Both the position numbers and the translations under genes were made by a program. A DNA stretch of 64,000 nucleotides, from positions 1 through 64,000 of the IMG/VR virus record IMGVR_UViG_3300037336_000025. One strand, given 5' to 3'. Below the pieces are notes generated by a model. It did no database searches and was not told the DNA's origin. It saw only the letters and a program-made list of their open reading frames with translations. Shown piece by piece: positions 5,783-64,000 of the stretch (position 1 is the first letter of the stretch; each line of letters begins with the position of its first letter). This DNA comes from a virus.

Positions 5783-8155
5783 ATGATCGAACCAAGTCAA
5801 AGTCTGCAACAAATCTTTGAAAATTCTGTTAGCATTGCTACACAACATCATCACGAATACATTACTATCGAACATATTGTTCTAGGTATTATGAATGATA
5901 AAGAGTCCTACGACCTCCTTGCAAGTTTTGGTGCTGATGCTAATTTTATCAAAACTAATCTAGAGCATTATATTAATAATAATCTAAACGATATTAAGAA
6001 CTCAGATCTCACAGTTAAGCCGAAGAAAACTAACTCAGTAGAACGTGTACTTAATCGATGCTTTACGCAGGTGTTGTTTAGCGGAAGACAACGTATGGAA
6101 GTAGCTGATGTTATTATCAGTGTGCTTTCAGAAAAAAATAGCTTTGGATTCTACTTCCTTACTAAAGGCGGAGTAACTAAAGAAAAGTTTGTAAAATATT
6201 TCCAAGAAAACATTGTTTTGGAAGAAAATCAAATAGAGGAAGAACAGGAACGTCGAGTGCCAAATTCTAATAATGCAGATAAAGTGTTAAATCAGTTCTG
6301 TACAAACTTGTCATTGAAGGCTAAACAACGAACTATTGATCCTGTTATTGGACGTAACGAAGAAATTGAAAAGATTCAACTAGTACTTGCTCGTCGTAAC
6401 AAGTGTAACGTTCTGATGGTCGGTGATCCAGGTGTTGGTAAAACTGCTATTGCAGAAGGCATTGCCCGCAAGATTCACGAGAAAAAAGTTCCTAAGTTTA
6501 TTCAGGATCACCAAGTATACTCATTAGATATTTCAGCATTACTTGCCGGTTCAAAGTATCGTGGTGATTTTGAAGAACGTGTTAAGAACGTATTAGCTGC
6601 TCTTGAAAAGAAAGGCAATATTATTCTGTTTATCGATGAAGCACATATGATGAACGGCGCAGGTGCTGGCGGCGGGCAAGCTAACGATCTTGCTAACATT
6701 CTTAAACCTGTTCTGACTAAAGGTGTTATTAAATTAATTGCATCAACTACTTGGGAAGAATATCGTAAGCACTTTGAAAAGGATCGTGCTCTCATGCGTA
6801 GGTTCCAGCGTGTCACGGTTGACGAGCCTACTCCGGAAATGGCTGTTAAGATTCTTAAAGGCGTTAGGAAGTATTACGAACAACATCATAATGTTAAGAT
6901 TACAGATGCTGCTATTGAACAGGCTGTAAAACTTTCTATTAAGTATATGGCTGATAAGAAACTGCCAGACAAGGCTATTGATATATTGGACTGTGCTGCT
7001 GCACGTTATAAAGTTAAAGATGATCCTACAATGGAAGGCGTTGAGCAGTTAGTTGACATCGAACAGATCACATACGAACTTAGTAAAATGATTAACATGC
7101 CGCTGGAAAGTGTTGCACAGAAAGAAAGCAAGAATCTTGCAGATCTCGAAAAAGGCATGAAGACTGCTGTGTACGGTCAAGACACTGCTGTTGGTATATT
7201 GCTTGACAAAATCTTTGTAGCACAAGCTGGAATGAAGAGTCCTAACAAGCCTATCGGTAGTTTCTTACTGCTTGGCCCGACTGGTACTGGTAAAACAGAA
7301 ACAGCTAAAGTGCTTGCAGACAAGATGGGCATGAATCTTATTCGCTTCGATATGGGCGAGTATCAAGAGAAGCACAGTGTTGCTAAATTGATCGGAGCAC
7401 CTCCTGGTTATGTAGGTTACGAAGATAACGCAGGGCAACTTATTACCAAGTTACAAGAAACTCCTAACGCTATCTTGTTGTTAGATGAAATTGAAAAGGC
7501 ACATCCGGATGTTACGAACATTTTGCTAGCGTTTATGGATAACGGATTTGTGACTGGGTCTAACGGTAAGACTGCTGACGGTCGTAATTGTATTTTACTG
7601 TTAACCAGCAACTTGGGTGCTAGGGACAATGAGAACAACACTATCGGATTTGGCGGACTAGATCGAGTAGGTGAAGACGACAAAGCAGTTAAAAAGTTTT
7701 TTGCGCCTGAGTTCCGCAATCGTTTAGATGCAGTTATCAAGTTTAGTAAGTTGAGTCCAGAAGTTGTTGTACAGATTGTTGGCAAGTTTATTGGCGAGTT
7801 GAATACTCAACTTAAAGATAAAGGTATTGAAATCGTAGTAGACAAAGCAGCAACCAAGTGGTTAGCCACTAACGGGTATGATAGCAAGATGGGTGCTCGT
7901 CCGTTGGCTAGACTTATTGATGAAAAGATCAAAAGTCCGCTGAGCCGTAGAGTCTTGTTTGGGGACCTAGTTGACGGTGGACGTGTTACTGTTAGTGTTG
8001 AAAATAACGAGCTATCATTTACTGTTGCTCCTATTCCTAAGCCAATAACTAAGGAAGAAAGAAAAGCTCGCAAAGCTGCCGCAGCAGCACAAAAAGAAAG
8101 GGAAATAAATGCTAATGTTACCGAAAGCCAAAACAACTCGTCGGAAGTTTTATAA
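5783..8155 (+). CDS. clpA: ClpA-type Hsp100 AAA+ ATPase
   Basis: Clp N domain; NBD1 GDPGVGKT/LFIDEAH/ALMRRFQ; NBD2 GPTGTGKT/LLDEIEKAHPDV; IGF loop (NTIGFGG); no M-domain coiled coil. Confidence 0.92.
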   Translation: MIEPSQSLQQIFENSVSIATQHHHEYITIEHIVLGIMNDKESYDLLASFGADANFIKTNLEHYINNNLNDIKNSDLTVKPKKTNSVERVLNRCFTQVLFSGRQRMEVADVIISVLSEKNSFGFYFLTKGGVTKEKFVKYFQENIVLEENQIEEEQERRVPNSNNADKVLNQFCTNLSLKAKQRTIDPVIGRNEEIEKIQLVLARRNKCNVLMVGDPGVGKTAIAEGIARKIHEKKVPKFIQDHQVYSLDISALLAGSKYRGDFEERVKNVLAALEKKGNIILFIDEAHMMNGAGAGGGQANDLANILKPVLTKGVIKLIASTTWEEYRKHFEKDRALMRRFQRVTVDEPTPEMAVKILKGVRKYYEQHHNVKITDAAIEQAVKLSIKYMADKKLPDKAIDILDCAAARYKVKDDPTMEGVEQLVDIEQITYELSKMINMPLESVAQKESKNLADLEKGMKTAVYGQDTAVGILLDKIFVAQAGMKSPNKPIGSFLLLGPTGTGKTETAKVLADKMGMNLIRFDMGEYQEKHSVAKLIGAPPGYVGYEDNAGQLITKLQETPNAILLLDEIEKAHPDVTNILLAFMDNGFVTGSNGKTADGRNCILLLTSNLGARDNENNTIGFGGLDRVGEDDKAVKKFFAPEFRNRLDAVIKFSKLSPEVVVQIVGKFIGELNTQLKDKGIEIVVDKAATKWLATNGYDSKMGARPLARLIDEKIKSPLSRRVLFGDLVDGGRVTVSVENNELSFTVAPIPKPITKEERKARKAAAAAQKEREINANVTESQNNSSEVL

Positions 8156-9188: not shown

Positions 9189-9216
9189 TAGTATAAGTTC
9201 TTTGGAATCCTACTAT

Positions 9217-9555
9217 ATGTTATTAAGAGAAATGTTTAGCCCTATCGGCGCACCAAATAATGAAGATCAAGATATCGACTGGCTCGATGATCTTAAGTTT
9301 TTCATCGATAATGATGATGTCATGCTTAATAGACACTTTTTTCCTGCGGTAAAGAGACACAAAGATTATCAAGGACATCCTAATGCATACAAAGTATACA
9401 TCCGTCCTATCGAACGTTGTAAGGACGCATACTGTAGTAAGTATAACGTAGAAGAACCCGAAAATAAATTCCCCAAAGAAAAAATAATTCAACTGGCAAA
9501 AATGATTGCTGGTGAGCAAGAGCAACATTTGACCTCAGGCGATTACGACAACTAA
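9217..9555 (+). CDS. hypothetical protein, candidate head-internal protein
   Basis: Probable ATG start 9217 (MLLREMF...), rather than TTG 9202; N-terminus resembles those of its neighbours. Confidence 0.65.
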   Translation: MLLREMFSPIGAPNNEDQDIDWLDDLKFFIDNDDVMLNRHFFPAVKRHKDYQGHPNAYKVYIRPIERCKDAYCSKYNVEEPENKFPKEKIIQLAKMIAGEQEQHLTSGDYDN

Positions 9556-9556
9556 T

Positions 9557-12112
9557 ATGTTTTTAAGACAATTATTTGAAGACGGTGGCAACCACATTAC
9601 ATTCTGCTTTGGCAGGTTTAATCCTCCTACCATTGGTCATAAACAGCTCTTTGATGTAATGAGCAGGCAGGGCGGTGATGTTAAAATATTCACTAGTCAA
9701 AGTCAAGACCCTAAAAAGAATCCTCTAGACTACGCTACGAAGATTAAATTCTTAAAGTTGATTGTACCAGAATACGCAAACAATATAGTTAGTGATGCAG
9801 GACTAAACACAGTTGTTAAAGTTGCAAGTCATTTATACAATCAAGGTTATCGTGATGCTACGTTTGTGGCAGGCAGTGATCGATTAGAAGAAATGAAAAA
9901 ACTCCTAGTAGCATATAATGGAGTAGAAGGTAAGAGTCATGGCTATTACAAATTTGATGTACTTGACTTTGTGTCGAGTGGCGAAAGAGAAGACGGTGCC
10001 GAAGGCGTTGCTGGTGTTAGTGCTAGTAGCGCTAGAGCTGCTGCTGCCACAGGCGATCTAGAAAAGTTTGCAGAAGCAACAGGTGCAGGGCAATATGCCA
10101 AAGCATTATATTCCGATGTACGTAAAGGCATGGGTATTAACAACAGTATAGAAGAAAACAATATGAGATCAAAAGAATTTACTCCTGCAGAGAAGCCAAG
10201 AAACTTTGTGGCCAAGAACGCTAAAATGGGCGGTGCTGGTCAGCACACGGATAAAAAGAAAGCTGAGAAACAGGGCGATGTCAAGCACAAAGGCAAAGAG
10301 TATGCCGAAGGCATGGCGGAGGGCGGCGGCGGTGGAGTCAGACAGTGGGCCAATCAAGTTCGCAAAGATCACGGTGCCGATGTCAAGTTTAGAAATCGTC
10401 AAGAAGGCAGCGGAGCAGTAGACAGTATTATTGCTAAAAATAGTCAAGGTGATATAGTGGGCGTATTCAATCGCAAGACTAATCACCCTACAGTATTTGA
10501 GCCAAAGACGGGTGTGGCGGAGGCCACTGGTGACAAGCCTTTCGACAACATGATGAAAAAAGTCACAAAGACTCCTACCGCTAAAGCAAGAAATACAGAA
10601 CGCATAAGACAAAAAAGAGAACGTGAAGAAGAAACACGTGATCGACTTAAAGGTGGCTTCGGTCCGAGCCCTGCAAATAAGTTAAGCATACGCGAACCAA
10701 AGGAAGGTAGCAGTGGCGCTATGGCCAATGCTGCAAGTCGATTGGTTAACAAAGATGATGGCAAAGTTGCAAAACTTCGAGCAGCTGGAGACAAGCGTCG
10801 TGAAGACCAATTAAAAAGCAGAAACATTGCCAAAAAGAATGAAGATGCAGCAAGTGTAGCGGAAAGTGATCCAAGTGGGCTGATGCATGCTGCCCGCCAT
10901 CTCAACAAAGAATTTCGTATCACTGCTGAAGTAGATGGTGTAGCAAAACGTGCTCGAGTGCAAGCGCAGAGTTCTAGAACAGCACAAGAAAAATTCATGA
11001 AACGCTATCCTACTGCACAGATACACAATGTTGAAGATATAACACAACAGATGAGTGAGACGGGTGTGGCGGAGGGTGGATTTTTTGATCCAGATCGACC
11101 CAATATTGGTGATGTAGTTAAACATAAACATAGTGGCGCCATGGGTCGAGTTAAAAAGATAGGAACACAAGGTGGCACTACTACGGTGTATTTCAAAGAT
11201 GCCAAAACAGGCGCAATGAATTATGGTGAGTGGAAGAAGCACGTGTTTCCAATTAAAAAGCAAGGTGTGGCGGAAGGTTCGTTTGGTTCAGGATATGGCA
11301 GGGTGTTTACTCTATATGTCAACACCGGCGAGAAGCCACCAACCAAGACCAAGACCAAAAAGTTTAAGCGTGAAGATGATGCTGTGGCCTGGGCAGAAGA
11401 CTATGCTGACACACACGACCAATATCCAACCCTCCAGATGGAAATAAAAGATGACAACGGTGGCGTGGTATGGGAACTAGAGGAATCACAGGGTGTGGCA
11501 GAAGGTTCATTTGGTAGTGGATTCAACGGTCCGTTCACCGCAGTGGTCAACACTGGTGAGCGTCCTAAATCAAGAACCAAAACTAAAAAATTCAAACGTG
11601 AGGATGATGCCATACTCTGGAGCGAAGACTGGTTAGAAGACTTTCCGCAGTATGTGTATGCTACCATTGAAGTCAAAGACTCAAACGATAATGTAGTTTG
11701 GCAAAGCGATGACGAGCAGGGTGTGGCAGAAGGTGAATTAAACGAGCTGATAGGTATGAACCAAGGCCCGGTAAAAAGAGATGTACCCCAACGAAAGAAA
11801 CCAACATTTGCTGAACTGGTTAAAAAGTCAACTGATAAACGATCAGCACTACAACGACAAAAAGATGGTGGCAAGAAAAACTGGTTTGCGGAAGACGATC
11901 ATGAAGGCATGTATAGCCCGCAAGCAATTAAGATGGGAAACTATTTCATCAAAGAATTTAATTTAACTGATGAAATGGATAAACAATTAGCAATTGAGAT
12001 AGTCGATAATTGTTTAGAGAGTGATTTGACTGATCCGGCTGAAATTAGAAAACAAGTGATAAAATACTTAAAACAAAGTGGAACAATTGTACAAAGTCGC
12101 AAAATAGGATAA
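9557..12112 (+). CDS. modular protein: N-terminal HxGH (cytidyltransferase-like) nucleotidyltransferase domain plus an array of small modules separated by xVAE-G motifs
   Basis: [11 protein letters not shown] and VAGSDR in the first ~195 aa; GMAEG, GVAEA, SVAES, GVAEG x4 and WFAED junctions downstream. Confidence 0.8.
10310..11733 (+). repeat. dispersed in-frame direct repeats GGTGTGGCRGARGG
   Basis: Copies at 10310, 10511, 10853, 11063, 11264, 11492 and 11720. The 18-mer AGACGGGTGTGGCGGAGG is identical at 10506 and 11058; the 18-mer CAGGGTGTGGCAGAAGGT is identical at 11489 and 11717. Confidence 0.9.
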
Positions 12113-12446: not shown

Positions 12447-12640
12447 AACAATACCGTGTAACTTATAATGTCGATAAAGGCGAAGGCGATGAATGCGTAC
12501 TAGATGCAAACGATGCCTTACATAAAATGAAGGAAGGAATGTTTCTCGGAAGTGTTCCGGGTGTTGACACCTATCTAGTATATCCTGAACCTCGAAGTGT
12601 AGATTCAGATGAAAAAATTAACCCGTATAGTCAAGTATGA
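12443..12640 (+). CDS. hypothetical protein (65 aa)
   Basis: ATGA overlaps at both ends, consistent with translational coupling. Confidence 0.65.
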
Positions 12641-13179
12641 AAGCAAATGAAATTTTAACAGAAGCAGTCAAGCAACGTCTTGACGCTAAGTGCTGGAAAG
12701 GCAAACATAAAGAAGGCACCAAAATTAAAGGTGGCGTTAGAGTTAATAATTGTGTGCCTAACGAAAGTCTGCACCAAGAGTTCGACATGATTGAAAGCAT
12801 CATTGAACAGATTGCAGATTATCATGCTATCGACAGTGACCTTGTATGGGAAGATTTATCAAATCTCACAGACGACGAGCTATATGTGTTTGCTGTTACC
12901 CAACCGGTTAACGAAGATTGGCAAAAAGCCAATAAGAAAGACAAGACTGATGGTATGAGCAAGAAAGCCGTTAGTGCGTATCGTAGAGAAAATCCAGGTA
13001 GTAAATTAAAGACTGCGGTAACTACTAAGCCTGGCAAGTTAAAGAAAGGTAGCAAGGCTTCAAAGCGTCGAAGCAGCTATTGTTCTAGATCCGCTGGACA
13101 ACAGAAAATGCATAACATTAGCTGTAGTAAAACTCCGGACAAGGCAATCTGCAAAGCACGTAGGCGCTGGAACTGCTAA
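12637..13179 (+). CDS. modular basic protein, candidate head-internal protein
   Basis: [10 protein letters not shown]-terminus; CWKG..GTK.KGG.RV.NCV module; acidic module; basic Cys-containing module ending RRRWNC. Confidence 0.7.
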   Translation: MKANEILTEAVKQRLDAKCWKGKHKEGTKIKGGVRVNNCVPNESLHQEFDMIESIIEQIADYHAIDSDLVWEDLSNLTDDELYVFAVTQPVNEDWQKANKKDKTDGMSKKAVSAYRRENPGSKLKTAVTTKPGKLKKGSKASKRRSSYCSRSAGQQKMHNISCSKTPDKAICKARRRWNC

Positions 13180-14195
13180 TGAGAGCAAGTGAATTTATCA
13201 CTGAAAACTTTGCCGACGGCAAGAAGCCGGGACGTAAAGGTCTAGCAAAACGCTCAGGTGTTAACACTAAAGCTAGTGTAAGTAGTCTACGAAAGACTGC
13301 AAAGAATAGCACAGGTGAAAAAGCTCGCATGGCACATTGGATGGCTAACATGAAAGCCGGTCGTGCCAAGTCTGAAGACATTGAAGAAGGATGGAAAGAC
13401 TGGGTAGCAGGCGGTGCTATGGCACTAGGTGCTTTAGGTGCTAATGCAGGTGATATTGTGTCACAGGTTGCAGAGAAAGGTGATACGGTTTATAGTATTG
13501 CTAGAGACAACGGTATTAGTCCTGCTGTTATTATGAAACTAAACGGATTTACTAATGCTACTAAACTAACACCCGGACAAGAAGTAAAAGTTCCTGATGT
13601 TTATACAGACGAAAAACCCGCTGCTAAAAAAGCAGAAAAGAAACCAGAAGTTAAAAAAATAGAACCAAAAGCAGAGCCAAAGGCTGCATTGGCGTCAACT
13701 AATGCACACGAAAACTTTTTAATTAAAACAGCAAGAGCTGCTGGCATTAAAGGAATAGAACTTGCTGCATTCTTATCGCAGGTTGCTCATGAAAGCCACG
13801 ACTTTCAAAGCATGGTAGAGTACGGAGGCAGTTTGGACTTCCGCAAATATGATCCTAAGTATGCTCCTAAGAAAGCTAAAATATTAGGCAATACTAAAGT
13901 AGGCGACGGTGCAAAGTACAAAGGTCGTGGATACATTCAAATCACCGGCAGGTACAACTACGGTATTGCTGGTGAAGCAATTGGCATAGATTTAGTAAGT
14001 AATCCTAAGCTAGCAGAAAAACCTGCGGTTGCTGCAAAGATTGCTATTTGGTACTGGAAACTTAGAGTACAACCAAATGTCGACGACTTTAGTAATGTTA
14101 GAGCTGTTACTAAGCCTATTAATCCGGGATTGCGTGGTCTAGAAGATCGTAAGAGCAACTTTAAAGATTATAAGACAATGGTTGCTGCTTTATAA
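13179..14195 (+). CDS. LysM + GH19 peptidoglycan hydrolase, probably virion-associated
   Basis: MRASEFITE leader; LysM (VAEKGDTVYSIARDNGISPAVIMKLNG...LTPGQEVKVP); GH19 (AAFLSQVAHES, YKGRGYIQITGRYNY, TKPINPGLRGLEDR). Confidence 0.85.
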   Translation: MRASEFITENFADGKKPGRKGLAKRSGVNTKASVSSLRKTAKNSTGEKARMAHWMANMKAGRAKSEDIEEGWKDWVAGGAMALGALGANAGDIVSQVAEKGDTVYSIARDNGISPAVIMKLNGFTNATKLTPGQEVKVPDVYTDEKPAAKKAEKKPEVKKIEPKAEPKAALASTNAHENFLIKTARAAGIKGIELAAFLSQVAHESHDFQSMVEYGGSLDFRKYDPKYAPKKAKILGNTKVGDGAKYKGRGYIQITGRYNYGIAGEAIGIDLVSNPKLAEKPAVAAKIAIWYWKLRVQPNVDDFSNVRAVTKPINPGLRGLEDRKSNFKDYKTMVAAL

Positions 14196-14206: not shown

Positions 14207-14452
14207 ATGAAAATACGTGAAATATTCGAGACTGCAACTGCTGGTGCGACATCTAGTGCTAATATTGCCACTGTTGTAAGCCCTCAGCTAAGTCCCGGTT
14301 CTGCACGTGGAAAAACCAGCTACACCGGAAGCCCAGGAAAAAGTGGTACTAAAGCACCGCCGCAACCTAAGCCAAAGAAACAAACCCCCACTGATAACGC
14401 ACTAGATTCCAAAACTAATATATTTGGCACTGGTACAGCAATCAAAAGATAA
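14207..14452 (+). CDS. small G/S/T/P/K-rich protein, candidate head-internal protein
   Basis: MKIREIFE N-terminus, own late promoter. Confidence 0.7.
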   Translation: MKIREIFETATAGATSSANIATVVSPQLSPGSARGKTSYTGSPGKSGTKAPPQPKPKKQTPTDNALDSKTNIFGTGTAIKR

Positions 14453-54194: not shown

Positions 54195-54201
54195 TATTTA
54201 T
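54195..54201 (-). promoter_or_regulatory. late promoter ATAAATA
   Basis: + strand TATTTAT, 5 nt before ATG 54189. Confidence 0.65.
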
Positions 54202-57200
54202 TCAGGCAATTTCGTTGTGCGTTTAGCTATGAAATTAGCAATAGGAGTTGCGTTTTCTAGCAATGTAATCCCGCTAGTAGCGGTATCTTCACCTCGATCA
54301 TACCATGAATTTCCTGTTCGTTTAATAATAGATATACGAGTTCCTGCAGAAACGGCTTCAGTAAGTCGTATAATTACTGCAGATCCATCTACTGAAAATT
54401 CTGCTTCTAATGTAATGTCTGCACCTGGGCTACTTGCACCGTTAATTTCATTATATACAGCTAACGGATCTTTACGTAATCGTCTTCCGCCTACAAACAC
54501 TTCTATTTCGTCGCATGGTCCATAAGTTGTAGGAATTGTAGTACGTACCCAGTTATTTCTAGAAGACTTAGCTGGTACATAGTTTAGGGGTCCAATTAAG
54601 ATAGTATTTCCGTCGCTAATAAAGTCTTCTCTAATTTGACTTTCGTTATACGGAATAACTTCTCGAGATCCTTGATCAACTACCGGTGTCCCAATAGCAT
54701 ATAAATTGCCAATTGATGTTCCGTGACTACCTCTCCTTAGTTGAGACAATACATTACCTGCTTTCCGTGTATACTCTATGCGCTCGCCATTAATTTCAAC
54801 AACACCTGGAATATTTCTAGATGCTATAGGAGCTGTTAATTCAGTAGCGTCGGTAACTGTGATAGTTTGATCATAATAGTTTAATGCTACAGCTAGTGTT
54901 ACAGAATTAATTGAATATCTAGTAAAACGGTAGATGTTTAACATATCTTTGTGTATTTCATAAGCACTTGGCAATTTATAAATATCAGTCCCAAACATTA
55001 CGACTTTGATTAAATCATTAGTAGTACTGTTATCTGTTAGGTAGATAGATCCTCTTGGCAACGTGATGAAATAATCAATATCTTTAGTTAATCGTATTCC
55101 GTTCTTGTACACCCATACATAATTAATTGACAACGGAGTTCGTTGTAGGAAATAATTTACTTTTCCTCCAGTGAACTCATCTGATATAATACGCATAGTT
55201 GGATATTCGCTAAACCAAGTAACATCAATGATATCATTGTCTGTTTCATTAGTTGATGTAAGTTCAACTCCAGCAGCAATAACAATGTTGTTATTTTCTA
55301 CATAGTATTCAGATCGTAGATTATTTTCAATTCTAATAGTATTGCCATTACTTAAAATTGCAGGTGTAATAGTAATTATTTTATTAGTGCCGTCATACAC
55401 ATAGTCTCGGATAACTGTGCGTTCTACATTATTCACAAACAATTTAATATTGCTTGTTAAAATTGCACCAGCACTCTCTACCGGGTCAAGGCCTAGCACA
55501 AACTTATTAGTAATACCGTCGTAGACATAATAGCTAGTATCTGGTCCACGTAGCGCAACTCCATTAACTTCTACTATCATCGACGATGCAGCTGATGCAG
55601 ATGGTAAATTAACAAATTCTGCAAGGTCAAAATTTCTAGTACTTCCTTCAAATTCAAATGACTGTTTGTGAACTTGTACTAGCGAAACTCCTGAAGAATC
55701 AGTAACCGTTGACGATCCTAAACAAATAATCTTAACAACATCTCTAAACTCTGGATTTGTTCCAAATTGGATTAATGTTTTATTAGTCGTAGATGTTAGC
55801 GCAGAACTATTGGTAAATCCAATATCCTCTCGCTGACCGTTTATTGTTACAAATACTGAACTTGTATCTGCAAAATTTGCTGCTGTTAAGAATAAACTAG
55901 TTTCGCCATCTGCCACAAATTCTTGATAATCTAGCAATACAATTCCACCAATGCCTACAGATATTATTTCGATTATTGATTCTGCGGTAGGTGCCACTAT
56001 AAACTCAATTTGGTTAGATACAAAATCAATTGTATAACTATCTTCTTGATTAATCTTGTTAACATAAACTAATACAGACGTTGTTTCTAATACATTCAAA
56101 TCAATAGTGTATAACTTAGTAGTACCGTCAGCTATGATAGTTTTAGACTGTAAAGGTGCAGCTCCAGTTGATGTGTTGTTAAACACTTTGATGCTTACAC
56201 TATCTAGGACCTGACCTGGTACGTTTTCTTCAGTAGCAGGCACTTGATCAGGACTAATAAATTTGTCACCGTCTATTGAAATTTCGTCTGCTGTGATACC
56301 GGTAGCTGTAGAATATGCGCCGGTCATACTTGCTAGTGTACCACCGCTTAAATTAGTGTCTAATAAATTACCATCGTTGATTGATACAGATCCATCACTT
56401 TCGATTGGGCGGAATATTAAAATGTCGCCGGCAGCAGTTTCAACGTAAGGAAAGTCAGTTAGTTGATTTACAAAATCAACTGTTGCAGTAACTCCGTCGC
56501 CGATAAAGGTTGGCATTTCTGCATTAGGATTTGATGAAGTTGACGAATCTACTTGATTGTTAAATGCCGGATCGTCAATTCTAATAGATCTTTGATCGCC
56601 TACTCTTTTAATGTAGATGTTAATCTCTTGACCTGTGGCCGGAACAAACGGTAATGTAATATTAACAGTACTGCCGTCGCATACAACATAATAATCTGCA
56701 CTCGACTCAACACTATCCCAATTATCAGTAAACCATGGTAGTGCATCCCAGCCGCCAGTGACATCGAATGTTGTACCTTGTATTTGCACACCGCCGAAGT
56801 CAATACCTGTCATTAACTGGGTTAACTCGTTGCCTTTCATTCCTGCTGTAGGTGCATAGTATTTTTGTATTCTATTAACACTGTCCAGTAAAGAATCATT
56901 CTTTTCGTAGTTAACTACAATACTATCTCCTCTAGCTGGAATTTCTGCAAAGCTAATCTTTCCTTTTAGTAAACTATAAGTATCAGTAGTAGAGGTGAAC
57001 AAGCTAATAAAATATTGATTGTTTAACAAAACTTGTCCATTCTTAACAACTGAAATTTTACTTTTATCTCTAGTTGGAGCATAGTTTAAATTGAACACGG
57101 AAACATTTCCAGTTCCAACAAGTGTCTGAGACTGTGAAAATGTTGTGAACAGGCCTGTCTTGCTAATCCTATCAAATTTCATAGTTAGATCGAAAGTTCG

Positions 57201-60200
57201 AACTTTCGAGTCTCCAATGAATGCTACCGCTTTTGCTTGCTCTGAACTTGCTGGATTGCCTCCGACTAATGTAACAGTTGGCGCTGATGTATATCCTGTT
57301 CCCGGATTTGTTACTTTAATTCCAGAGACTGCACCGTTTGAGATGTATGCCTGCGCTGTTGCACCCGTACCTGTTCCGGTAATTAATACTGCAGGAGCTG
57401 AAATATAATCTGCACCTGATTTATATGTAGTAATTGCTGTTATAGAATATCCGTTAGTATCCGTCCACCATTTCCACGGATACGATTGCAATTCGATACT
57501 GTATTGATTCACTGGAACAATTTTTCCTGCTTCAACTGAGTAAGTTGGAGGTAAATCAAAATCTGAAATTGCAGACGGTGCCGCTTCTATTGTGTCGTAT
57601 CTGCTGATATATTCTCTTACCGTTGTTCTATATGGCTTAACTTCGTTAATATATTCTTGGAAACTTTCAATGTTATCATTTTTGTAATTAAGTTTTTGCG
57701 TTAGCGGACCTACATTATGAGTAGCCGTTAAGAAACTAGTTTTAAACGCCCAGTCAATATATGTCTGTTCAGCAAATGCATATCTTACAGAATTAAAGAA
57801 TAGTCGGTTCCATTCGATTGCATAGTCGCCAATAAATATGTTTTCTTTGATTGCCGCAAAAATATTTCTTAATTCGGTAGAATTTCCTATATCATAGTAA
57901 GTAGCATCAAATGTTTGGGCAGTATCATACCCAATCCCAGATGATGTAATATCATACAAACTGCTAGATAATTCCACAGTACCTTTTTCTCTACCTACTA
58001 GTTGATGGTTATCTAAAAATGTATTAATGCTAGTATTTTGCAAATTAGTTAGTTCTTCAAAGACTGCCCATCCGCCAGCGCCGTATTCTTTAATACGGAC
58101 TAGATCTCCTGCCTCAAGATTTGTTATCGCAGGATACTCTGAAAGATTTGTAATTTCCTTAACAATGCGGTCTGTTGGAGTATATCCTTCTTTCCACCAA
58201 TCTGATAGACTCCAATAACGTGTTGTGTCATACGATTGCGATATACTTCTAAAGAACACTTTTCTTACATCATCCCATGCATATATACTCCAGAAATTAT
58301 TAGAAGTAGCATCACTATTAACTAAAACCGAGAACTGTCTTACTGTTGCAGATGCTGAACTATATTTCTTACCTTTTGAAGTTATTACAACTGCAATAAC
58401 TCTGCCCTGGCCATCAATGCGGCATGCTGCTGTGGCTCCTGTACCTGTACCTGTTATACTAATCGTTGGACCAACATACACTCCAGGAATTGATTGATTA
58501 ACTAATTCTGTTGGCTTGTAACCAAATCCCGGACTAACAATATCAATAGTATCGATTAATCCGTCTACAATGTTAACTGATAAAGTCGCTTGACGAGTTT
58601 TAGCTGTACCCACTAATAATAAGTCTGCGTATGTATCTACTGCAACATCATAGCGATTTAATACAGCATTAGGTGCTTGGTCAATTAAATTTAAGTTATT
58701 AAAATTGATAATATCTGCAAACGATTCCTGTTGCAACACAGTATTAACTCGTTGTATAGCTGCTTTCAGTGCTGCTATATTATTAACAAACATTGACTGC
58801 CTTGGTCTAAAACTTATTCCGTATTTTTGTTTGTCAGATAATGTAGAATCTGGAACTCGGTCACCTGTTAAATTTATACCAATTAAACTATCAATCCATT
58901 TTGTTTCTAACTGTTTTGTAGGTACGCTATCTGCTACACCTTCAGTTAACAATTGATATTCGTTGTGTATTGCATTTAAACTATCAGTGGTTTTACGATA
59001 TTCAATATTCAACAATGCTGTATCAGACGAGATAACCGAGGTAAAGTTATACGTTAATATTTTGTCTGTATCTAGTAGTGCAACAAATGCTGTTCCGGTT
59101 CCTGCTGGGCTACTGATATATGATGCAACTGATGCAGCTGATATTCTTCTGCTTGGCATATTTTCAGGTACTGTTACTTTGCTCTTGACCCAATAATAGT
59201 ATAAGGTTGAGGTTGCTAGCCCAGTATTAGAATTAAACAGTTCTTTAACTGAATACACATTATCATTAGGATATAATGGCTGTCCGGAAATACCTTCGGC
59301 TATACCTTCGTTAGTATCTGCAACTCCGCTCCATTCTGACGGTAGCAGTAAACTTTCTACCCATTCGTAAATGTCAATACTTGCGCCTGCTGCAAGAGTA
59401 TTCCAGTTGCCTACTCGATAAGCAATATCGCCTTGCTGATAGTCTATCCACTTAGCTTGTGACAAATCCCACCAAAGTTCACCTACATGTTTAGTAGTCC
59501 ATGACTGTGTTGGTTCAACAACTTGATCATCAGTTCCTAGTGTGTACACTGCCGGATCAAACGGAGTTTTGAATGCAAGTTCCTGTTCTGCAGAATTTAA
59601 TATTTTTAAATTAGCATGGTCAACATAGTCTATGTCTTGAATTTTTGTGTTTTTAACATTGTCATATAACCCAATGCTTCGAATTTTTGCAAGGTCAACA
59701 ATTTTTTGCTTAGTTGATAACACTTCCCATGATTCGATAGTTTCATCTTTTCTAAACAATCTAACTGTGCCTATCTTTTGTCCAGGGTATGTAAATGCTG
59801 ATCCAGACAATACCGGCGCAACAAATCTGGGAGATCCTACAGCTATTGCAGATCTAGTACAATCTATGCTATTACCAAAAGATTCAAACGGCGATAACTC
59901 TGCTTCTAATTTTTCAGTTAGGAAATAGCTATCTGCTTTTCTTTCAAATACATATACTGCGCCTGCATATCCCTTTGCATCGATAAATCGTGTTAGCGAC
60001 TGATCAAACGATGTACCATCTAGAGTATCAAACATTGTGACATTAACAAACGGAGTATTCTTTGCGCCGATGGCAATTCTTTCTGTACCAGAGCTAATAG
60101 AGATACTTTGGCCGAACCATTCATCAGCATACTGTTCAAAACTTTCTAGTTTTTGCTTCAATCTAAATTCGAGGGCTGCAAGTCCTGCAGTTTCGAACAC

Positions 60201-63200
60201 ATAAGCAGAGCCTTGATTTATAAGATTTAAGTCTGCCCTAGGACTTGTTATTACTAGTGTAGTTCCTGAATAATCAACATCAATAGCAAATCCAAATTGG
60301 TCGCCTGCATTAATTTCTGTATTGCCGGTAGTAATATCATTTAACCCTACCATCGATCCAGCATTGATTGTCTGCTTGAGATCATATGTTCCCAATGTAG
60401 ACCGTTGGTAAATGTAAACTTTGCCAGATGATACTGTGGTACTATCGCCCACATTAATCCAAGGCAGTCCACTGCCTGACGGGTCGTCGTTAATGCTTGT
60501 TGCATCTGTTAATTTATAATATTGTGTTTCAGACTTCACTACATCATTTTCAGCATACTCTACATCTGCTCTCCATTGTCCTCTGTAGTTTGCAAAATAT
60601 TGGCCGTCGCTGTTTGGTGCACCGATAACAAGAATGCCACCGTCTCGGCTCATAGTCATCGAAGTACCGAACTCGTCTCCTACTTTAATTAATTCTGCTA
60701 ATTGCGTGTTGCCTAATATACCAATAGTAGCTTCTTCTGTAAGATTTATAAGCGCTAATGTTGATCCATCATCGTCAATGGAGATATTTGATGGTAGTGA
60801 GGTATGTGTAGATCCTGGATCTAGTTGTGTCCACTGTTGTGAGTCTACAGTAATAGAGCTGCCGTCACCTAGTTGGTCTTCTAGAGACTGCCACAAAGAT
60901 TCGTTAAACCAAACAATTGTTCCTGCTGGGTAACTAGTTGCTCCTGTTGGATCATAGATTCCAGCATAGCTAGAATTTTCTTTGTGTGTCCACTCTACGC
61001 CGTCGTATTCAAATAGGTAAACTCTTCCTCGATTTTCTAGTGAACCGATTGCAGAGACTGCCATGTAATATTCTGTGCCGCTTACTCCAATTGCAACTTC
61101 TGAGCCAAAGAATTCATATTCTTGTGGACGCGGGCTAACAAATGAAGAATGTATATTCCATTGTTGGTTACTCCATTCGTAAATAGAAATCATACCTTGC
61201 TGAGTAAATCCAGGAGCTCTTCCGGACGATAGTGCAGGAATAGAGTTAGCTTGTTCCCAATTTTCTGAATCAAGATCAATCGTGCTGTAATCGCTAGTGT
61301 TTATATCCTTGTTTGCTTTCCATAAACTACCAGCATATAGAACAATATCATCCTCTATGTATGATGCTGATGAAAAACCACCCTGGTAATTACTCTTGAT
61401 TCCGCTGGCCAATGGTGATGACACGATTAACCAACGACTGTCTGGACTTATCGCCATCTTGCTACCAAACGATCCAACAACATTTGACTCGAACCCGCTT
61501 AGAGGAGCAATAATTTGTTTTAGTGTTAGACCATTATGTGATTCAATATAACTCATTACATATCCGGATCCTGGAATACTAGATATAGTCTGTTTTAAAT
61601 TGTCATCATAGATAACTTTAGTTCCTGCATTAATAGGAGTTGTAATGCCATACTCAGTTAATTCTTTGTTTACAAATTGTTTATTTTTTCTAATAACTTC
61701 CCAAAGGTCACTGCCGTTGTTGTCAACCCACAGTTTAGCGCCATTAACTAATAATGCGGCTGCTTCTGGATCCAATGTGTCGTAGGATGCAGTACGAGCA
61801 GTAGTCAACGTGTACAATGTTGTAAGTGTGCTAGCATCAAATTCAGGTGCAGTAGTTGAGGTTGCTTCAACTACTAATGTATAATCTCCAACTTCAACAA
61901 TCTTAAAAAATCCTGTAAGATTAGGAATTTCCTTAACCCCAACAATGTCGTCAACTATAAGACTATGACGGCGTGACAGTGTAATTGTTACTTGCCCATC
62001 TGCTAGAGATACGTCAATAATATTAAGTTGTGGTGCTTGGTTATATCGTAAAACTGTCCAGGTGTATGAATCAAATGTGATCCAGATATGATCATTTTCT
62101 ACAACACTATTAATATCAAGATCTAAAATGTCGTCTCTAGATTTCAATATAAAATCTATTTGATCATTTTTTACATATCCAGCCGTTTTTTCTAATCCAT
62201 TGCTGTATGCTACAGGAGTTACATTAAAAGTAAAGTCTATAGGAGATACTGTAAAATTTGATTGTGCGATTCTATAATATTGATCAGTGATAGCTGTATC
62301 AATATTAGCTGTTAATAAAAACGGTTGGGGATCAATTTTAAATTTATTCTTTGAAAATTCAAACTCAATTTCTCTTAATTGATCTGTTCCGCCGACGCGG
62401 CCAACTCTAAATGCCCATTCCTCATTGAGTACAATACTGTCTCCTGTTGAACGACTTAGTTTATTAAACACTTTAGAAATTGCATTTGCTGTGCCCTTTT
62501 CTCTAACAAATCCCTGATATAATTGGAACTGTGTTACTGGATCTTCAGCTAGAGTTTGTAAATATTCTCTAGTCTGGTAACCAACTGCGTGACGTGCTAG
62601 AGCACGTTGGCTTTCACCTGTACCTTCAGCATCTACATTATAGTAATCTTCAAATTGATTGATCTTATAATCAAAGTTTGCAACTAGTTGTTTTTCCGGG
62701 GTTGAATCTAGTTTTGTCCAGCTAGTATTGTTAAATGTTTCTGACCCTAATTGGTTTACAAGGCTAGTCCAATTGTAACTTCTATAAGAAACAATGTCTC
62801 CTAACTTATAATCATTAAAAGGAGCCCAGGCAGTAATGTTAACGTTATCAAACAAAAAGCCAGGGCTAGTGTAATCCCCGTCCCAATCAACTGTGCGGAA
62901 TCCTTGTGTCTTTAGCCTATCCTGGCGATACCCAGTTGACTTGTCATAGATAATATCATTGAATACTGTACGATCAGAGAAAATAGCAACGTGTTCTTTA
63001 AGCACATAGTATACTGTTAGGTAATGGATACCTTCTGTAGTATTAGTAGTCGCTACTGTGATATTTTGAAAACTTCTGTTAACGTTAATAAAATTAGGAG
63101 CTAACGGTTTTCCGTCGGCTTTTAATAACTGGTAACTGTAGAATCCATCTAGAATATTATCAGCAACTCCTACTGGAATTGTAATATCTAATTTTTCTGC

Positions 63201-64000
63201 GCCTGGGCTTAATGTAATTAGAGACCCTACTGCCCAATTCTGTCTGGTCCAGAACATGTATTCTTTGCAGCTTGTTGTCCAGTCTTGAGAAACTTGATTT
63301 GCTGGATCGTATCTATTAAAGGTAAACCCAACAGATTTTAGATATGCTTCATACCCTAGCAGAAAGTTAACTACTTCTTGCACAGTATCTAATCTAGCAC
63401 CATAGCTGAGTCTAGAAAGATTCAAAGTATTAAAAGTTCTACGACGTTGTGCTTCCACTGCGCCAACTAGTGGCAACTGTGGTAATTTTTTCCACTGGGC
63501 TGTATCAAAGACCGTACTGCTACTATGAGTTCTTAATGCTCTATAAAATGTATTATTCCGACGTACTATCTGTCCATTGTTATAGGTTTTATTTGTTGTC
63601 CAGTCAGTAAATGTTTCACTAACTCCGCCTACTGAGATTGTAGGATCGGCTTGATTAGCTACAGCTGGATAGTAGTTAAAATACGGGTGAATATTATCGT
63701 AGCCACTTATAACCCATCCGCCTTCAGATTTTTCTAATATCACTCCGCTATAGGAAACACTTGCGATCGGAGAACTAACATTAAAAATAATGTCGTAGTT
63801 TTCTGCAGGAATGTAAATGTTACTAGAAGTTGCACTTGGATTCTTGCTGTCTAAAATATACTTTTGTTGAGCTTTGTCAACAAAGCCTGACAATCTAGTA
63901 GATAAATTAACATCAAGATTTCGTAGCTTTGTATTAACTTCTGAAATATCTGCACCAATAGATCTAATATAACTTGAGACATATTTCACTAGCCCAGATG
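54198..64000 (-). CDS. giant (>3,260 aa) baseplate wedge-like structural protein, N-terminus beyond the window
   Basis: Frame stays open to the window edge (the track 'start' is an internal GTG: ...SGLVKYVSSY). Contains baseplate-type KPYRTTVRE and GSGY/GADY..AP.V.I.G.G.GATA.A motifs, FG-GAP-like repeats and W...Y..G.IV repeats. Confidence 0.75.
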   Translation of the reverse strand, partial: SGLVKYVSSYIRSIGADISEVNTKLRNLDVNLSTRLSGFVDKAQQKYILDSKNPSATSSNIYIPAENYDIIFNVSSPIASVSYSGVILEKSEGGWVISGYDNIHPYFNYYPAVANQADPTISVGGVSETFTDWTTNKTYNNGQIVRRNNTFYRALRTHSSSTVFDTAQWKKLPQLPLVGAVEAQRRRTFNTLNLSRLSYGARLDTVQEVVNFLLGYEAYLKSVGFTFNRYDPANQVSQDWTTSCKEYMFWTRQNWAVGSLITLSPGAEKLDITIPVGVADNILDGFYSYQLLKADGKPLAPNFINVNRSFQNITVATTNTTEGIHYLTVYYVLKEHVAIFSDRTVFNDIIYDKSTGYRQDRLKTQGFRTVDWDGDYTSPGFLFDNVNITAWAPFNDYKLGDIVSYRSYNWTSLVNQLGSETFNNTSWTKLDSTPEKQLVANFDYKINQFEDYYNVDAEGTGESQRALARHAVGYQTREYLQTLAEDPVTQFQLYQGFVREKGTANAISKVFNKLSRSTGDSIVLNEEWAFRVGRVGGTDQLREIEFEFSKNKFKIDPQPFLLTANIDTAITDQYYRIAQSNFTVSPIDFTFNVTPVAYSNGLEKTAGYVKNDQIDFILKSRDDILDLDINSVVENDHIWITFDSYTWTVLRYNQAPQLNIIDVSLADGQVTITLSRRHSLIVDDIVGVKEIPNLTGFFKIVEVGDYTLVVEATSTTAPEFDASTLTTLYTLTTARTASYDTLDPEAAALLVNGAKLWVDNNGSDLWEVIRKNKQFVNKELTEYGITTPINAGTKVIYDDNLKQTISSIPGSGYVMSYIESHNGLTLKQIIAPLSGFESNVVGSFGSKMAISPDSRWLIVSSPLASGIKSNYQGGFSSASYIEDDIVLYAGSLWKANKDINTSDYSTIDLDSENWEQANSIPALSSGRAPGFTQQGMISIYEWSNQQWNIHSSFVSPRPQEYEFFGSEVAIGVSGTEYYMAVSAIGSLENRGRVYLFEYDGVEWTHKENSSYAGIYDPTGATSYPAGTIVWFNESLWQSLEDQLGDGSSITVDSQQWTQLDPGSTHTSLPSNISIDDDGSTLALINLTEEATIGILGNTQLAELIKVGDEFGTSMTMSRDGGILVIGAPNSDGQYFANYRGQWRADVEYAENDVVKSETQYYKLTDATSINDDPSGSGLPWINVGDSTTVSSGKVYIYQRSTLGTYDLKQTINAGSMVGLNDITTGNTEINAGDQFGFAIDVDYSGTTLVITSPRADLNLINQGSAYVFETAGLAALEFRLKQKLESFEQYADEWFGQSISISSGTERIAIGAKNTPFVNVTMFDTLDGTSFDQSLTRFIDAKGYAGAVYVFERKADSYFLTEKLEAELSPFESFGNSIDCTRSAIAVGSPRFVAPVLSGSAFTYPGQKIGTVRLFRKDETIESWEVLSTKQKIVDLAKIRSIGLYDNVKNTKIQDIDYVDHANLKILNSAEQELAFKTPFDPAVYTLGTDDQVVEPTQSWTTKHVGELWWDLSQAKWIDYQQGDIAYRVGNWNTLAAGASIDIYEWVESLLLPSEWSGVADTNEGIAEGISGQPLYPNDNVYSVKELFNSNTGLATSTLYYYWVKSKVTVPENMPSRRISAASVASYISSPAGTGTAFVALLDTDKILTYNFTSVISSDTALLNIEYRKTTDSLNAIHNEYQLLTEGVADSVPTKQLETKWIDSLIGINLTGDRVPDSTLSDKQKYGISFRPRQSMFVNNIAALKAAIQRVNTVLQQESFADIINFNNLNLIDQAPNAVLNRYDVAVDTYADLLLVGTAKTRQATLSVNIVDGLIDTIDIVSPGFGYKPTELVNQSIPGVYVGPTISITGTGTGATAACRIDGQGRVIAVVITSKGKKYSSASATVRQFSVLVNSDATSNNFWSIYAWDDVRKVFFRSISQSYDTTRYWSLSDWWKEGYTPTDRIVKEITNLSEYPAITNLEAGDLVRIKEYGAGGWAVFEELTNLQNTSINTFLDNHQLVGREKGTVELSSSLYDITSSGIGYDTAQTFDATYYDIGNSTELRNIFAAIKENIFIGDYAIEWNRLFFNSVRYAFAEQTYIDWAFKTSFLTATHNVGPLTQKLNYKNDNIESFQEYINEVKPYRTTVREYISRYDTIEAAPSAISDFDLPPTYSVEAGKIVPVNQYSIELQSYPWKWWTDTNGYSITAITTYKSGADYISAPAVLITGTGTGATAQAYISNGAVSGIKVTNPGTGYTSAPTVTLVGGNPASSEQAKAVAFIGDSKVRTFDLTMKFDRISKTGLFTTFSQSQTLVGTGNVSVFNLNYAPTRDKSKISVVKNGQVLLNNQYFISLFTSTTDTYSLLKGKISFAEIPARGDSIVVNYEKNDSLLDSVNRIQKYYAPTAGMKGNELTQLMTGIDFGGVQIQGTTFDVTGGWDALPWFTDNWDSVESSADYYVVCDGSTVNITLPFVPATGQEINIYIKRVGDQRSIRIDDPAFNNQVDSSTSSNPNAEMPTFIGDGVTATVDFVNQLTDFPYVETAAGDILIFRPIESDGSVSINDGNLLDTNLSGGTLASMTGAYSTATGITADEISIDGDKFISPDQVPATEENVPGQVLDSVSIKVFNNTSTGAAPLQSKTIIADGTTKLYTIDLNVLETTSVLVYVNKINQEDSYTIDFVSNQIEFIVAPTAESIIEIISVGIGGIVLLDYQEFVADGETSLFLTAANFADTSSVFVTINGQREDIGFTNSSALTSTTNKTLIQFGTNPEFRDVVKIICLGSSTVTDSSGVSLVQVHKQSFEFEGSTRNFDLAEFVNLPSASAASSMIVEVNGVALRGPDTSYYVYDGITNKFVLGLDPVESAGAILTSNIKLFVNNVERTVIRDYVYDGTNKIITITPAILSNGNTIRIENNLRSEYYVENNNIVIAAGVELTSTNETDNDIIDVTWFSEYPTMRIISDEFTGGKVNYFLQRTPLSINYVWVYKNGIRLTKDIDYFITLPRGSIYLTDNSTTNDLIKVVMFGTDIYKLPSAYEIHKDMLNIYRFTRYSINSVTLAVALNYYDQTITVTDATELTAPIASRNIPGVVEINGERIEYTRKAGNVLSQLRRGSHGTSIGNLYAIGTPVVDQGSREVIPYNESQIREDFISDGNTILIGPLNYVPAKSSRNNWVRTTIPTTYGPCDEIEVFVGGRRLRKDPLAVYNEINGASSPGADITLEAEFSVDGSAVIIRLTEAVSAGTRISIIKRTGNSWYDRGEDTATSGITLLENATPIANFIAKRTTKLPE

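Follow-up and report, generated by a model that had tools for sequence, protein, structure and literature searches.

The first 64,000 nucleotides (nt) of the virus record IMGVR_UViG_3300037336_000025, here called the window, contain an 851-amino-acid (aa) open reading frame (ORF) in which an enzyme domain is followed by an array of small modules, the cassettes, parted by junctions that share a short DNA sequence, the word. The record is a 186-kb IMG/VR contig with 39.8% GC and a CheckV completeness of 53%, and the source phage, which is giant, T4-like and uncultured, comes from a salt lake. Every public sequencing run in which the gene occurs is a salt-lake metagenome, and the public-run index search listed no RNA run with it. 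Relatives bearing the word have genomes of up to 300-343 kb, and the closest deposited relatives of the enzyme domain belong to the Kyanoviridae (cyanophages, the Methylophilales phage Melnitz and phage C48C1). The T4 late promoter, TATAAATA, is absent near the gene.

The enzyme domain (M0) is 38%-41% identical to the cytidyltransferases of cyanophages and Melnitz, and its N terminus, MFLRQLFE, loosely resembles the T4 capsid-targeting sequence (CTS). The array opens with a leader, M1, whose ATG at 10163 (MRSKEF...) starts an ORF of its own, apart from the enzyme gene, in 31 of 34 distinct relatives; there, a separate M1-type leader gene stands downstream of the enzyme gene, and many homologues begin MKAKEFIPAEKPRN. 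Because the enzyme gene and the leader are separate ORFs in these relatives, the 851-aa ORF is a lineage-specific fusion. After the enzyme domain, the frame is divided by eight junctions (Table 1). An earlier note, made from the letters of this sequence, had placed all eight correctly, with spacings of 201, 342, 210, 201, 228, 228 and 162 nt; that these are multiples of 3, as it also stated, is true but follows from the shared frame and is no extra evidence. Its description of the modules as mostly unrelated is accurate in general, except that M6 and M7 are homologues and that M3 is two cassettes, M3a and M3b, fused across a decayed junction and found apart in L025, L076 and L079. The higher GC content that it saw in the modules is a weak signal: the spot counts of 28/60 and 21/60 are right, but GC at third codon positions in the cassettes is 0.376 against 0.319 for the genome (SD 0.078, z = 0.7).

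Table 1. Features of the array gene and head genes of the source phage. Positions refer to the window unless marked genome. J, junction; M, module; L, related locus; X, other salt-lake run; P, stand-alone or single-cassette form.
Feature	Positions	Strand	Remarks
851-aa ORF, enzyme domain and cassette array	9557-12112	+	ORF reading; fusion status from relatives
M0, cytidylyltransferase-like HxGH nucleotidyltransferase domain	9557-10171	+	residues 17-113 match PF01467, E = 7e-7
M1, DUF7230-type leader	10163-10321	+	PF23876 below cut-off; phrog_1359
J1, G-M-A-E	10310-10323	+	breakpoint in L007 and runs X2, X5, X23
Cassette M2, 67 aa	10322-10522	+	unrelated 171-nt cassette instead in L007, X23; stand-alone form P0035
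J2, G-V-A-E	10511-10524	+	word match; breakpoint in relatives
Cassette M3, 114 aa	10523-10864	+	composite M3a + M3b, decayed junction near 10700-10719
J3, S-V-A-E (GTA GCG)	10853-10866	+	X3 and X5 contigs diverge past 10864
Cassette M4, 70 aa	10865-11074	+	other cassette follows M4 in L013
J4, G-V-A-E, exact word	11063-11076	+	word search; breakpoint in relatives
Cassette M5, 67 aa, small beta-barrel (predicted)	11075-11275	+	96-97% nt identity in L010, L014
J5, G-V-A-E, exact word	11264-11277	+	word search; breakpoint in relatives
Cassette M6, 76 aa, beta-beta-alpha-beta-beta (predicted)	11276-11503	+	stand-alone form P0021
J6, G-V-A-E, exact word	11492-11505	+	word search; breakpoint in relatives
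Cassette M7, 76 aa, M6 homologue (57% aa)	11504-11731	+	stand-alone forms P0054, P0070
J7, G-V-A-E, exact word	11720-11733	+	word search; breakpoint in relatives
Cassette M8, 54 aa	11732-11893	+	9 nt in its place in L007 and contigs of three other runs
J8, degenerate W-F-A-E, GCG GAA retained	11882-11895	+	breakpoint in relatives
M9, C-terminal module, 72 aa	11894-12109	+	100% aa identity in L007
gp21-type prohead protease, PF03420 (Peptidase_S77), 79.4 bits	genome 90036-90671		beside scaffold and MCP genes
Scaffold gene	genome 90685-91779
gp23-type capsid protein (MCP)	genome 91791-92960

The AlphaFold model of M5-M6-M7 predicts three folded units, a small beta-barrel and two beta-beta-alpha-beta-beta domains, and the junctions fall in stretches of the model (61-78, 136-152 and 213-219) where the predicted local distance difference test score (pLDDT) is below 50. 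A Foldseek comparison of this model with the PDB gave nothing at E ≤ 1e-3, the best local matches for M5 being KOW/Tudor/SH3-like barrels, and against BFVD the two matches, at about 6e-4, were uncharacterised phage proteins. Pfam and PHROGs searches of 24 arrays returned nothing but DUFs and an occasional ParB_N, cytidyltransferase, nuclease or endolysin match. No function could be assigned to the modules from these comparisons. Stand-alone forms exist for M2, M6 and M7; none of M5 (36-118 aa) was found by the word-indexed search.

The consensus of the word is CAA GGT GTG GCG GAA GG, in the codon frame Q-G-V-A-E-G. Its 14-nt form, GGTGTGGCRGARGG, has four exact and two near matches in the 64 kb, compared with 0.39 expected, and none of 100 shuffles reached six; elsewhere in the 186-kb contig the word does not occur. 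Two 18-nt repeats reported in the earlier note are indeed exact (10506-10523 with 11058-11075, and 11489-11506 with 11717-11734). That note had also proposed that the junctions are conserved at the level of their nucleotides, with GTG and GCG retained, and this holds against genome usage: GTG makes up 13% of Val codons genome-wide but is used in all five of the GVAE motifs of the gene, and GCG, 6.5% of Ala codons in the genome, occurs seven times in the gene, six of them in x-A-E motifs. In the gene at 14487, as the note had observed, the three VAE motifs are written differently (GTT-GCT, GTT-GCC and GTT-GCA).

Codon choice was surveyed at 81 unique G-[VM]-A-E junctions from 28 distinct array ORFs. 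Since these relatives were gathered by protein homology and not by the word, the selection of array genes was blind to the junction codons. Gly is GGT at 77 of 81 junctions (95%; background 43%), Val is GTG at 68 of 74 (92%; background 13.7%) and Ala is GCG at 71 of 81 (88%; background 6.6%), and the codon before the junction Gly is usually CAA. The choice between GAA and GAG for Glu agrees with the background (GAA at 59 of 81; background 81%). All 89 unique near-words in the array ORFs (at most two mismatches to a 12-nt core) are in frame, and 76 spell GVAE. Their departures from the consensus comprise 41 synonymous and 16 nonsynonymous changes, i.e., 72% synonymous where 28% is expected (P = 6e-12); the peptide is therefore under selection as well, and both it and its codons are held. 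In a control for common ancestry, homologous cassettes at 30%-70% aa identity agreed at 41% of four-fold sites inside the cassette (38/92) and at 91% of those in the adjoining junctions (20/22), although these numbers are small. More widely, at least 120 viral contigs carry the exact 17-mer CAAGGTGTGGCGGAAGG; of its 162 copies there, 161 read Q-G-V-A-E-G in the frame of the longest ORF, and the modules have a median length of 76 aa. A genome holds two to four exact copies, on one strand, all direct and in frame. Conservation at the silent positions of the repeat far exceeds what codon usage or common descent would predict.

A cause in translation or RNA was considered for this pattern: GTG and GCG would be retained because, as rare codons, they make the ribosome pause between domains, or because they belong to an RNA signal, and the shuffling described below would be incidental. 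The two codons are indeed rare in these genomes, and the junctions are predicted by the model to lie between folding units. However, other rare synonymous codons are hardly used (GTC 0/74 and GCC 2/81), the common GGT is fixed rather than the rare GGG, the preceding CAA is mostly constant, and the breakpoints of exchange coincide with the word. Codon identity and not codon rarity is conserved, so the explanation fits poorly and is very improbable.

The cassettes are swapped, lost and gained with breakpoints at the word. The related locus L007 has the same backbone as the window, with an identity of 99.6% in the upstream 2.3 kb and of 99.5% in the downstream 2.6 kb, and only the array differs. 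In L007, an unrelated 171-nt cassette takes the place of M2 (10325-10510), M6 (228 nt) is missing, and 9 nt stand in place of M8 (162 nt). The points at which identity is lost are 10324, 10511, 11287/11489 and 11730/11893. The cassettes that the two have in common are 2.6%-7% diverged, mostly at silent sites, compared with 0.4% in the flanks, which means that they came in from other lineages and were not passed down with the backbone. In another near-identical pair, L009 and L010 (98%-99% in the flanks), M2 and M6 are traded for M5, and identity stops within about 2-15 nt of the cassette edges. The likeness of L009, L010 and L014 to the window gene at the DNA level is limited to single cassettes with 95%-97% nt identity, among them M2, which lies in a different gene of L009 (95%). 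Their enzyme domains are only 28%-41% identical to that of the window as proteins; for L010 and L014, in which M5 has 96%-97% nt identity, the values are 41% and 28%.

Independent samples were provided by contigs of four other salt-lake runs from 2017-2021 (X2, X3, X5 and X23). Their joints, given as the window positions that are brought together, are 10324>10511 with 171 nt between, 10509>11263, 10523>11257, 11281>11510, 11730>11893 with 9 nt between (in three runs) and 11502>12307 with 723 other letters, and loose ends were seen at 10864, 11066 and 11724. The 11281>11510 joint skips exactly 228 nt, and M6 is missing in the X5 contig as it is in L007. Run X2 contains the M2 form alongside the replacement form. 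The M8 replacement recurs in L007, X3, X5 and X23, and the M2>M6 joint recurs in L009, X3 and X23. Each of the eight window junctions is a breakpoint in at least one relative, and the sole recurrent joint away from them, at 10719, is the decayed junction inside M3. One X3 joint, 9581>10061 (side 26), lies outside any junction, and is single and of low support. A joint that goes back, 11899>10719, reads as a different gene arrangement (M8 then M3b). No circle junction was present in the contigs of the four runs, and contigs drop rare forms.

The earlier note had predicted orthologues with differences in module number, order and identity, the same modules in other junction-bearing genes, and breakpoints at the repeat, as well as synonymous-site conservation above codon usage, and all of these were found. 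It had also expected variants joined at the repeat; deletion and replacement forms of this kind occur in other metagenomes, whereas the excised circles that it proposed were not seen in contigs.

It is scarcely credible that the shuffled arrangements are artefacts in which assembly fused metagenome contigs at sequence they have in common, since identical joints are found again in IMG and Logan assemblies and in different samples and years. The data are all metagenomic and contigs do break at junctions, but the 14-21 nt of the word fall short of the 31 letters used for words in the Logan run index (a figure for the index, not for the assemblers themselves). A chimera formed through a common cassette would, moreover, still require that cassette in both genomes.

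An alternative is that the word is the target of a phage-encoded site-specific recombinase, nickase or homing-type endonuclease, which would make this a true integron-like system. Three fixed silent positions within 14-17 nt exceed the known needs of general recombination, and the two to four exact copies per genome all lie on one strand. Against a dedicated enzyme, no integrase, recombinase or endonuclease family was detected by Pfam in the eight proteins scanned around the array, arrays are found in varied gene contexts, the word shows no dyad symmetry by inspection, and the contigs, in which one could be missed, showed no circle junction. Such an enzyme appears rather improbable. The phrase integron-like, used for the locus in the earlier note, holds as an analogy and not for the integrase, the circles or the symmetry of the site.

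The genes of the head point to a possible second function for the same codons. The source phage encodes a gp21-type prohead protease next to the scaffold and the gp23-type major capsid protein (MCP; Table 1), and gp21 cleaves after L/I-x-E (PMC9026906). The capsid protein reads K-Y-L-A-E|S-A-T-A-G at residues 38-47, just ahead of its match to the Gp23 model, and the L-A-E (aa 40-42) is predicted to mark the end of the propeptide; the corresponding residues are L-K-E|N and L-A-E|N in two related giant genomes. Among long proteins, the scaffold (P = 1e-3) and the array gene (P = 2e-5) are the top two in enrichment for [LIVMF]-A-E.

T4 IPII and IPIII begin with MKTYQEFIAE, and starts resembling this leader are present in the source genome, MRLTEILTE among them, with close matches in the gene at 135978 (MKTFKEYLAE) and in the neighbours of the array gene at 12637 and 13179. 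The pattern is clearest in single-cassette relatives, which consist of a leader such as MKTLREYINLIE, QGVAE, one cassette (M2, M6 or M7), a second QGVAE and a short tail. Most Met-starting homologues are visibly T4-leader-like by eye, although a strict automated pattern recovers only 20 of 143. Many array leaders copy the region of the MCP cut, as Y-T-L-E|S-A-T-S-G-G-T-S. In distant M5 relatives, the DNA word is lost and [VL]-x-E|G still stands ahead of the domain.

Neighbours with N termini like the T4 CTS lie at 9202-9555, 12637-13179, 13179-14195 and 14207-14452; one of them contains LysM and a GH19 hydrolase (PF01476 and PF00182) and one contains DUF6321. The array sits within a cluster of genes for likely head-internal cargo. 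After its leader, the gene at 14207-14452 reads E|T-A-T-A-G-A-T-S-S-A-N-I-A-T-V, a near copy of the predicted mature N terminus of the MCP (E|S-A-T-A-G-A-T-S-A-G-N-V-A-T), and many array genes of relatives, with leaders in L025, L033, L049, L059 and L064, show the same. This stretch may mimic the segment of the capsid protein that is recognised by the protease or binds the core.

Several other elements recur in the cargo family. In the single-cassette forms P0021, P0054, P0042, P0081 and P0080, the last junction is followed by a conserved acidic-then-amphipathic tail, P-D-A-I-x-K-I-x-x-L-x-R-K, and a similar stretch is found in M9 of the window (12040-12109). The tail may be a second head-targeting element or a removable one. 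A Cys motif, C-W-x-G-[YH]-[KR]...N-C-V-P, often follows a targeting leader or ends an array (window 12688-12760, the C terminus of L009, P0018, P0020, P0039, P0046 and P0077) and also occurs in the cytidyltransferase extensions of Melnitz and C48C1. It may form a mini zinc-binding module common to the family. At L003:4066-4872 (genome 136565-137371), a 268-aa protein with three near-identical acidic repeats, D-G-D-G-D-H-D-M-D-D-H, ends in R-L-A-E|A-K-G, and its gene adjoins the one starting MKTFKEYLAE.

The word could act as a frame-preserving crossover site and a flexible linker that stays uncut, the product remaining a single polyvalent protein of several domains in the head or the cytoplasm. 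The contigs show exchange at the word directly, and cleavage we infer; the Glu-less junctions of L009 (G-V-A-K and G-V-V-G) and the finding that polyvalent phage proteins can be delivered uncut (PMC5512222) also agree with a linker. An uncut product nevertheless leaves aside the purifying selection on the peptide, with 72% of word changes synonymous, and the fit of the junction to hydrophobic-x-Glu followed by a small residue, like the MCP site. It likewise leaves aside the persistence of [VL]-x-E|G without the word in distant M5 relatives and the single-cassette genes, in which the junction comes right after a T4-like targeting leader, where T4 cuts. We consider it unlikely, yet a serious alternative, and cleavage at the junctions by the head protease is plausible from the motifs. 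For the double duty that the earlier note assigned to the repeat, the recombination half is thus supported and the protease half is plausible.

The explanation that we favour, with a probability of roughly 0.6, is that one short sequence serves both as a protease site and as in-frame microhomology for the general recombination of the phage, in a polyprotein of capsid cargo. The gene would encode capsid-internal proteins of a giant T4-like phage, and a leader resembling the T4 CTS would bring the polyprotein into the prohead core. There, the gp21-type head protease would cut after the Glu of each G-V-A-E, freeing modules of about 6-13 kDa that would remain in the head and go into the host along with the DNA. 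Cassettes that are otherwise unrelated, and likewise divergent phages infecting the same cell, would have in common, through the fixed word, 14-21 identical nt that are always in frame. The general recombination system of the phage would cross over at the word, and cassettes would be swapped, lost, duplicated and moved between genes; as the crossover would lie at an in-frame word, the exchange would break neither the frame nor the cut sites. Fast turnover or second-order selection would keep the word uniform.

Several observations weigh against this explanation. In the window ORF, both MFLRQLFE and the internal start at 10163 are loose matches to MKTYQEFIAE, and some array genes, as in L009, begin without a targeting leader. 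Some junctions of relatives read G-V-A-K or G-V-V-G (L009), and cutting at every joint therefore cannot be obligatory. Searches by family and by protein matched neither gp23 nor gp21 in three genomes, G002, G004 and G005; G002 (343 kb, 99% complete by CheckV) gave none, yet has four exact words in CTS-type array genes (locus L210). Either the search missed the head genes of G002, or the junction system also exists in phages with other head genes. A length of 14-21 nt is short for ordinary homologous recombination, and recombination alone gives no obvious reason for fixed silent sites, unless turnover is fast or selection is second-order. Finally, the confidence of the M5-M7 model is modest (mean pLDDT 59.7).

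More tentatively, the word may have evolved as a frame-preserving recombination signal, possibly recognised by a phage factor, and the CTS-led arrays may be a counterpart of integrons in coding sequence. With the same few codons used for recombination and for cutting, the head protease would then play the part of an "unpacker". In that case, a community-wide pool of hundreds of small injected proteins would be plugged in and out by divergent giant phages.

An exhaustive phmmer search with aa 201-851 against 1.84 billion representatives gave 892 cluster representatives at E ≤ 1e-3. Among the best 150 of these 892 matches, the best-matching stretch usually corresponds to about one module, at varying positions, in proteins of 59-1220 aa, and G-[VMIL]-A-E is present in 117. 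The same region gave no match by tblastn in the deposited phage genomes (50,697 records), which the full protein matches through the enzyme domain only. In the phage literature, no paper with GVAEG, QGVAE or DUF7230 was found, nor was one found that describes a polyprotein of internal head proteins.

If the microhomology and protease explanation is correct, phages keep a fast-changing arsenal of virion-delivered proteins by this mechanism, in which one short sequence ensures that a new module is both in frame and released in the head. It would explain how unrelated small proteins spread at 95%-100% identity among phages whose core genes are only 30%-40% identical, and would define the cut specificity for a large uncultured clade of T4-like jumbo phages. 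The borders would delimit hundreds of candidate injected effectors (the 892 cluster representatives above), and the arrangement would show, as a design rule taken from nature, how several cargo proteins can be loaded into a T4-type head.

Three further features of the source genome were observed. Just upstream of the cargo cluster, the window encodes a 790-aa ClpA/ClpB-like double AAA+ protein (5783-8155), which is unusual in a phage; the remaining upstream ORFs read as small proteins. After the structural genes, a very long minus-strand ORF occupies 54198-63989 and continues to genome position 67985 (4595 aa in the whole contig). At L003:5370-8300 (genome about 137870-140800), the frame of the terminase large subunit is apparently split into ORFs of 212 and 467 aa by a 304-aa ORF, which looks like a free-standing endonuclease-type gene.

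Among the closest parallels to the proposed cargo are the internal proteins of T4. IPI, IPII, IPIII and Alt have a short leader of the same pattern (MKTYQEFIAE in T4; MKTFKEYLAE in a gene of the source genome and MKTLREYINLIE in single-cassette relatives), and a gp21-family protease gene and a hydrophobic-x-Glu cut motif (predicted here) are likewise common to both. Small, diverse and fast-changing cargo is a further likeness (PMC3012670, PMC9026906). Unlike in T4, where each internal protein has its own gene and one leader, up to eight putative cargo modules here share one frame and are parted by repeated cut-site-like junctions with fixed DNA. In phiKZ, 201phi2-1 and SPN3US, a gp21-related protease cuts head-internal proteins after the Glu of short motifs, often at several sites in a protein (PMC9026906, PMC10052503), but the inner-body and ejection proteins of these phages are not described as shuffled arrays and no conservation of junctions at the DNA level is reported for them.

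Shuffling at short conserved motifs is itself known in T4-type phages. PeSLs, which are intergenic elements composed of an early promoter and a stem-loop terminator, flank ORFan cassettes and recombine, giving insertion, deletion and replacement among close relatives; they move whole genes, and mini-circles have been shown (PMC2839356, PMC4122927). In contrast, the motif here is much shorter and part of an in-frame coding sequence, what it moves are protein modules within genes, and no circles were seen in contigs. Nor is it an intergenic composite of the PeSL type: all but one of the 162 copies of the 17-mer are within long ORFs, in the QGVAEG frame. In the tail-fibre adhesins gp37 and gp38 of T-even phages, in-frame exchange in or near conserved glycine-rich motifs gives chimeric proteins (PMC3157838). 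Those motifs are structural parts of one fold, between variable loops, whereas the junctions here lie between domains that are independent and unrelated, and they also fit a protease site.

Polyvalent proteins combine many unrelated domains, are predicted to be packaged and delivered with the DNA, and have been proposed to be released by proteolysis; 36% have a peptidase domain of their own (zincin-like MPTase, assemblin-like and other types), which is thus frequent in the family but not obligatory, and no fixed junction has been described (PMC5512222). With an enzyme domain and at least eight modules, mutually unrelated except for M6 and M7, the window protein resembles them (they have 2-15 unrelated domains), and some arrays contain ParB-like and nucleotidyltransferase domains as they do. 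Unlike in many polyvalent proteins, no peptidase family was found in the window protein or in the 24 arrays, and the protease is a separate gene.

As in integrons, a platform is followed by a variable array of short cassettes from a community-shared pool, with a recurring site at the borders. The arrays differ from integrons in that the cassettes are in-frame modules and not genes and that neither a tyrosine-recombinase integrase nor attI was found (Pfam, the eight proteins around the array); unlike attC, with its imperfect inverted repeats, the word is, by inspection only, not its own reverse complement. In the polymorphic toxins CdiA (VENN) and Rhs (PxxxxDPxGL), a conserved motif borders the exchanged modules, and the Rhs border is also a cleavage site. 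These are bacterial secreted toxins with one variable C-terminal module and an immunity gene, whereas the window gene carries a multi-cassette array in a putative phage head protein. Every principle involved here has a precedent in known systems.

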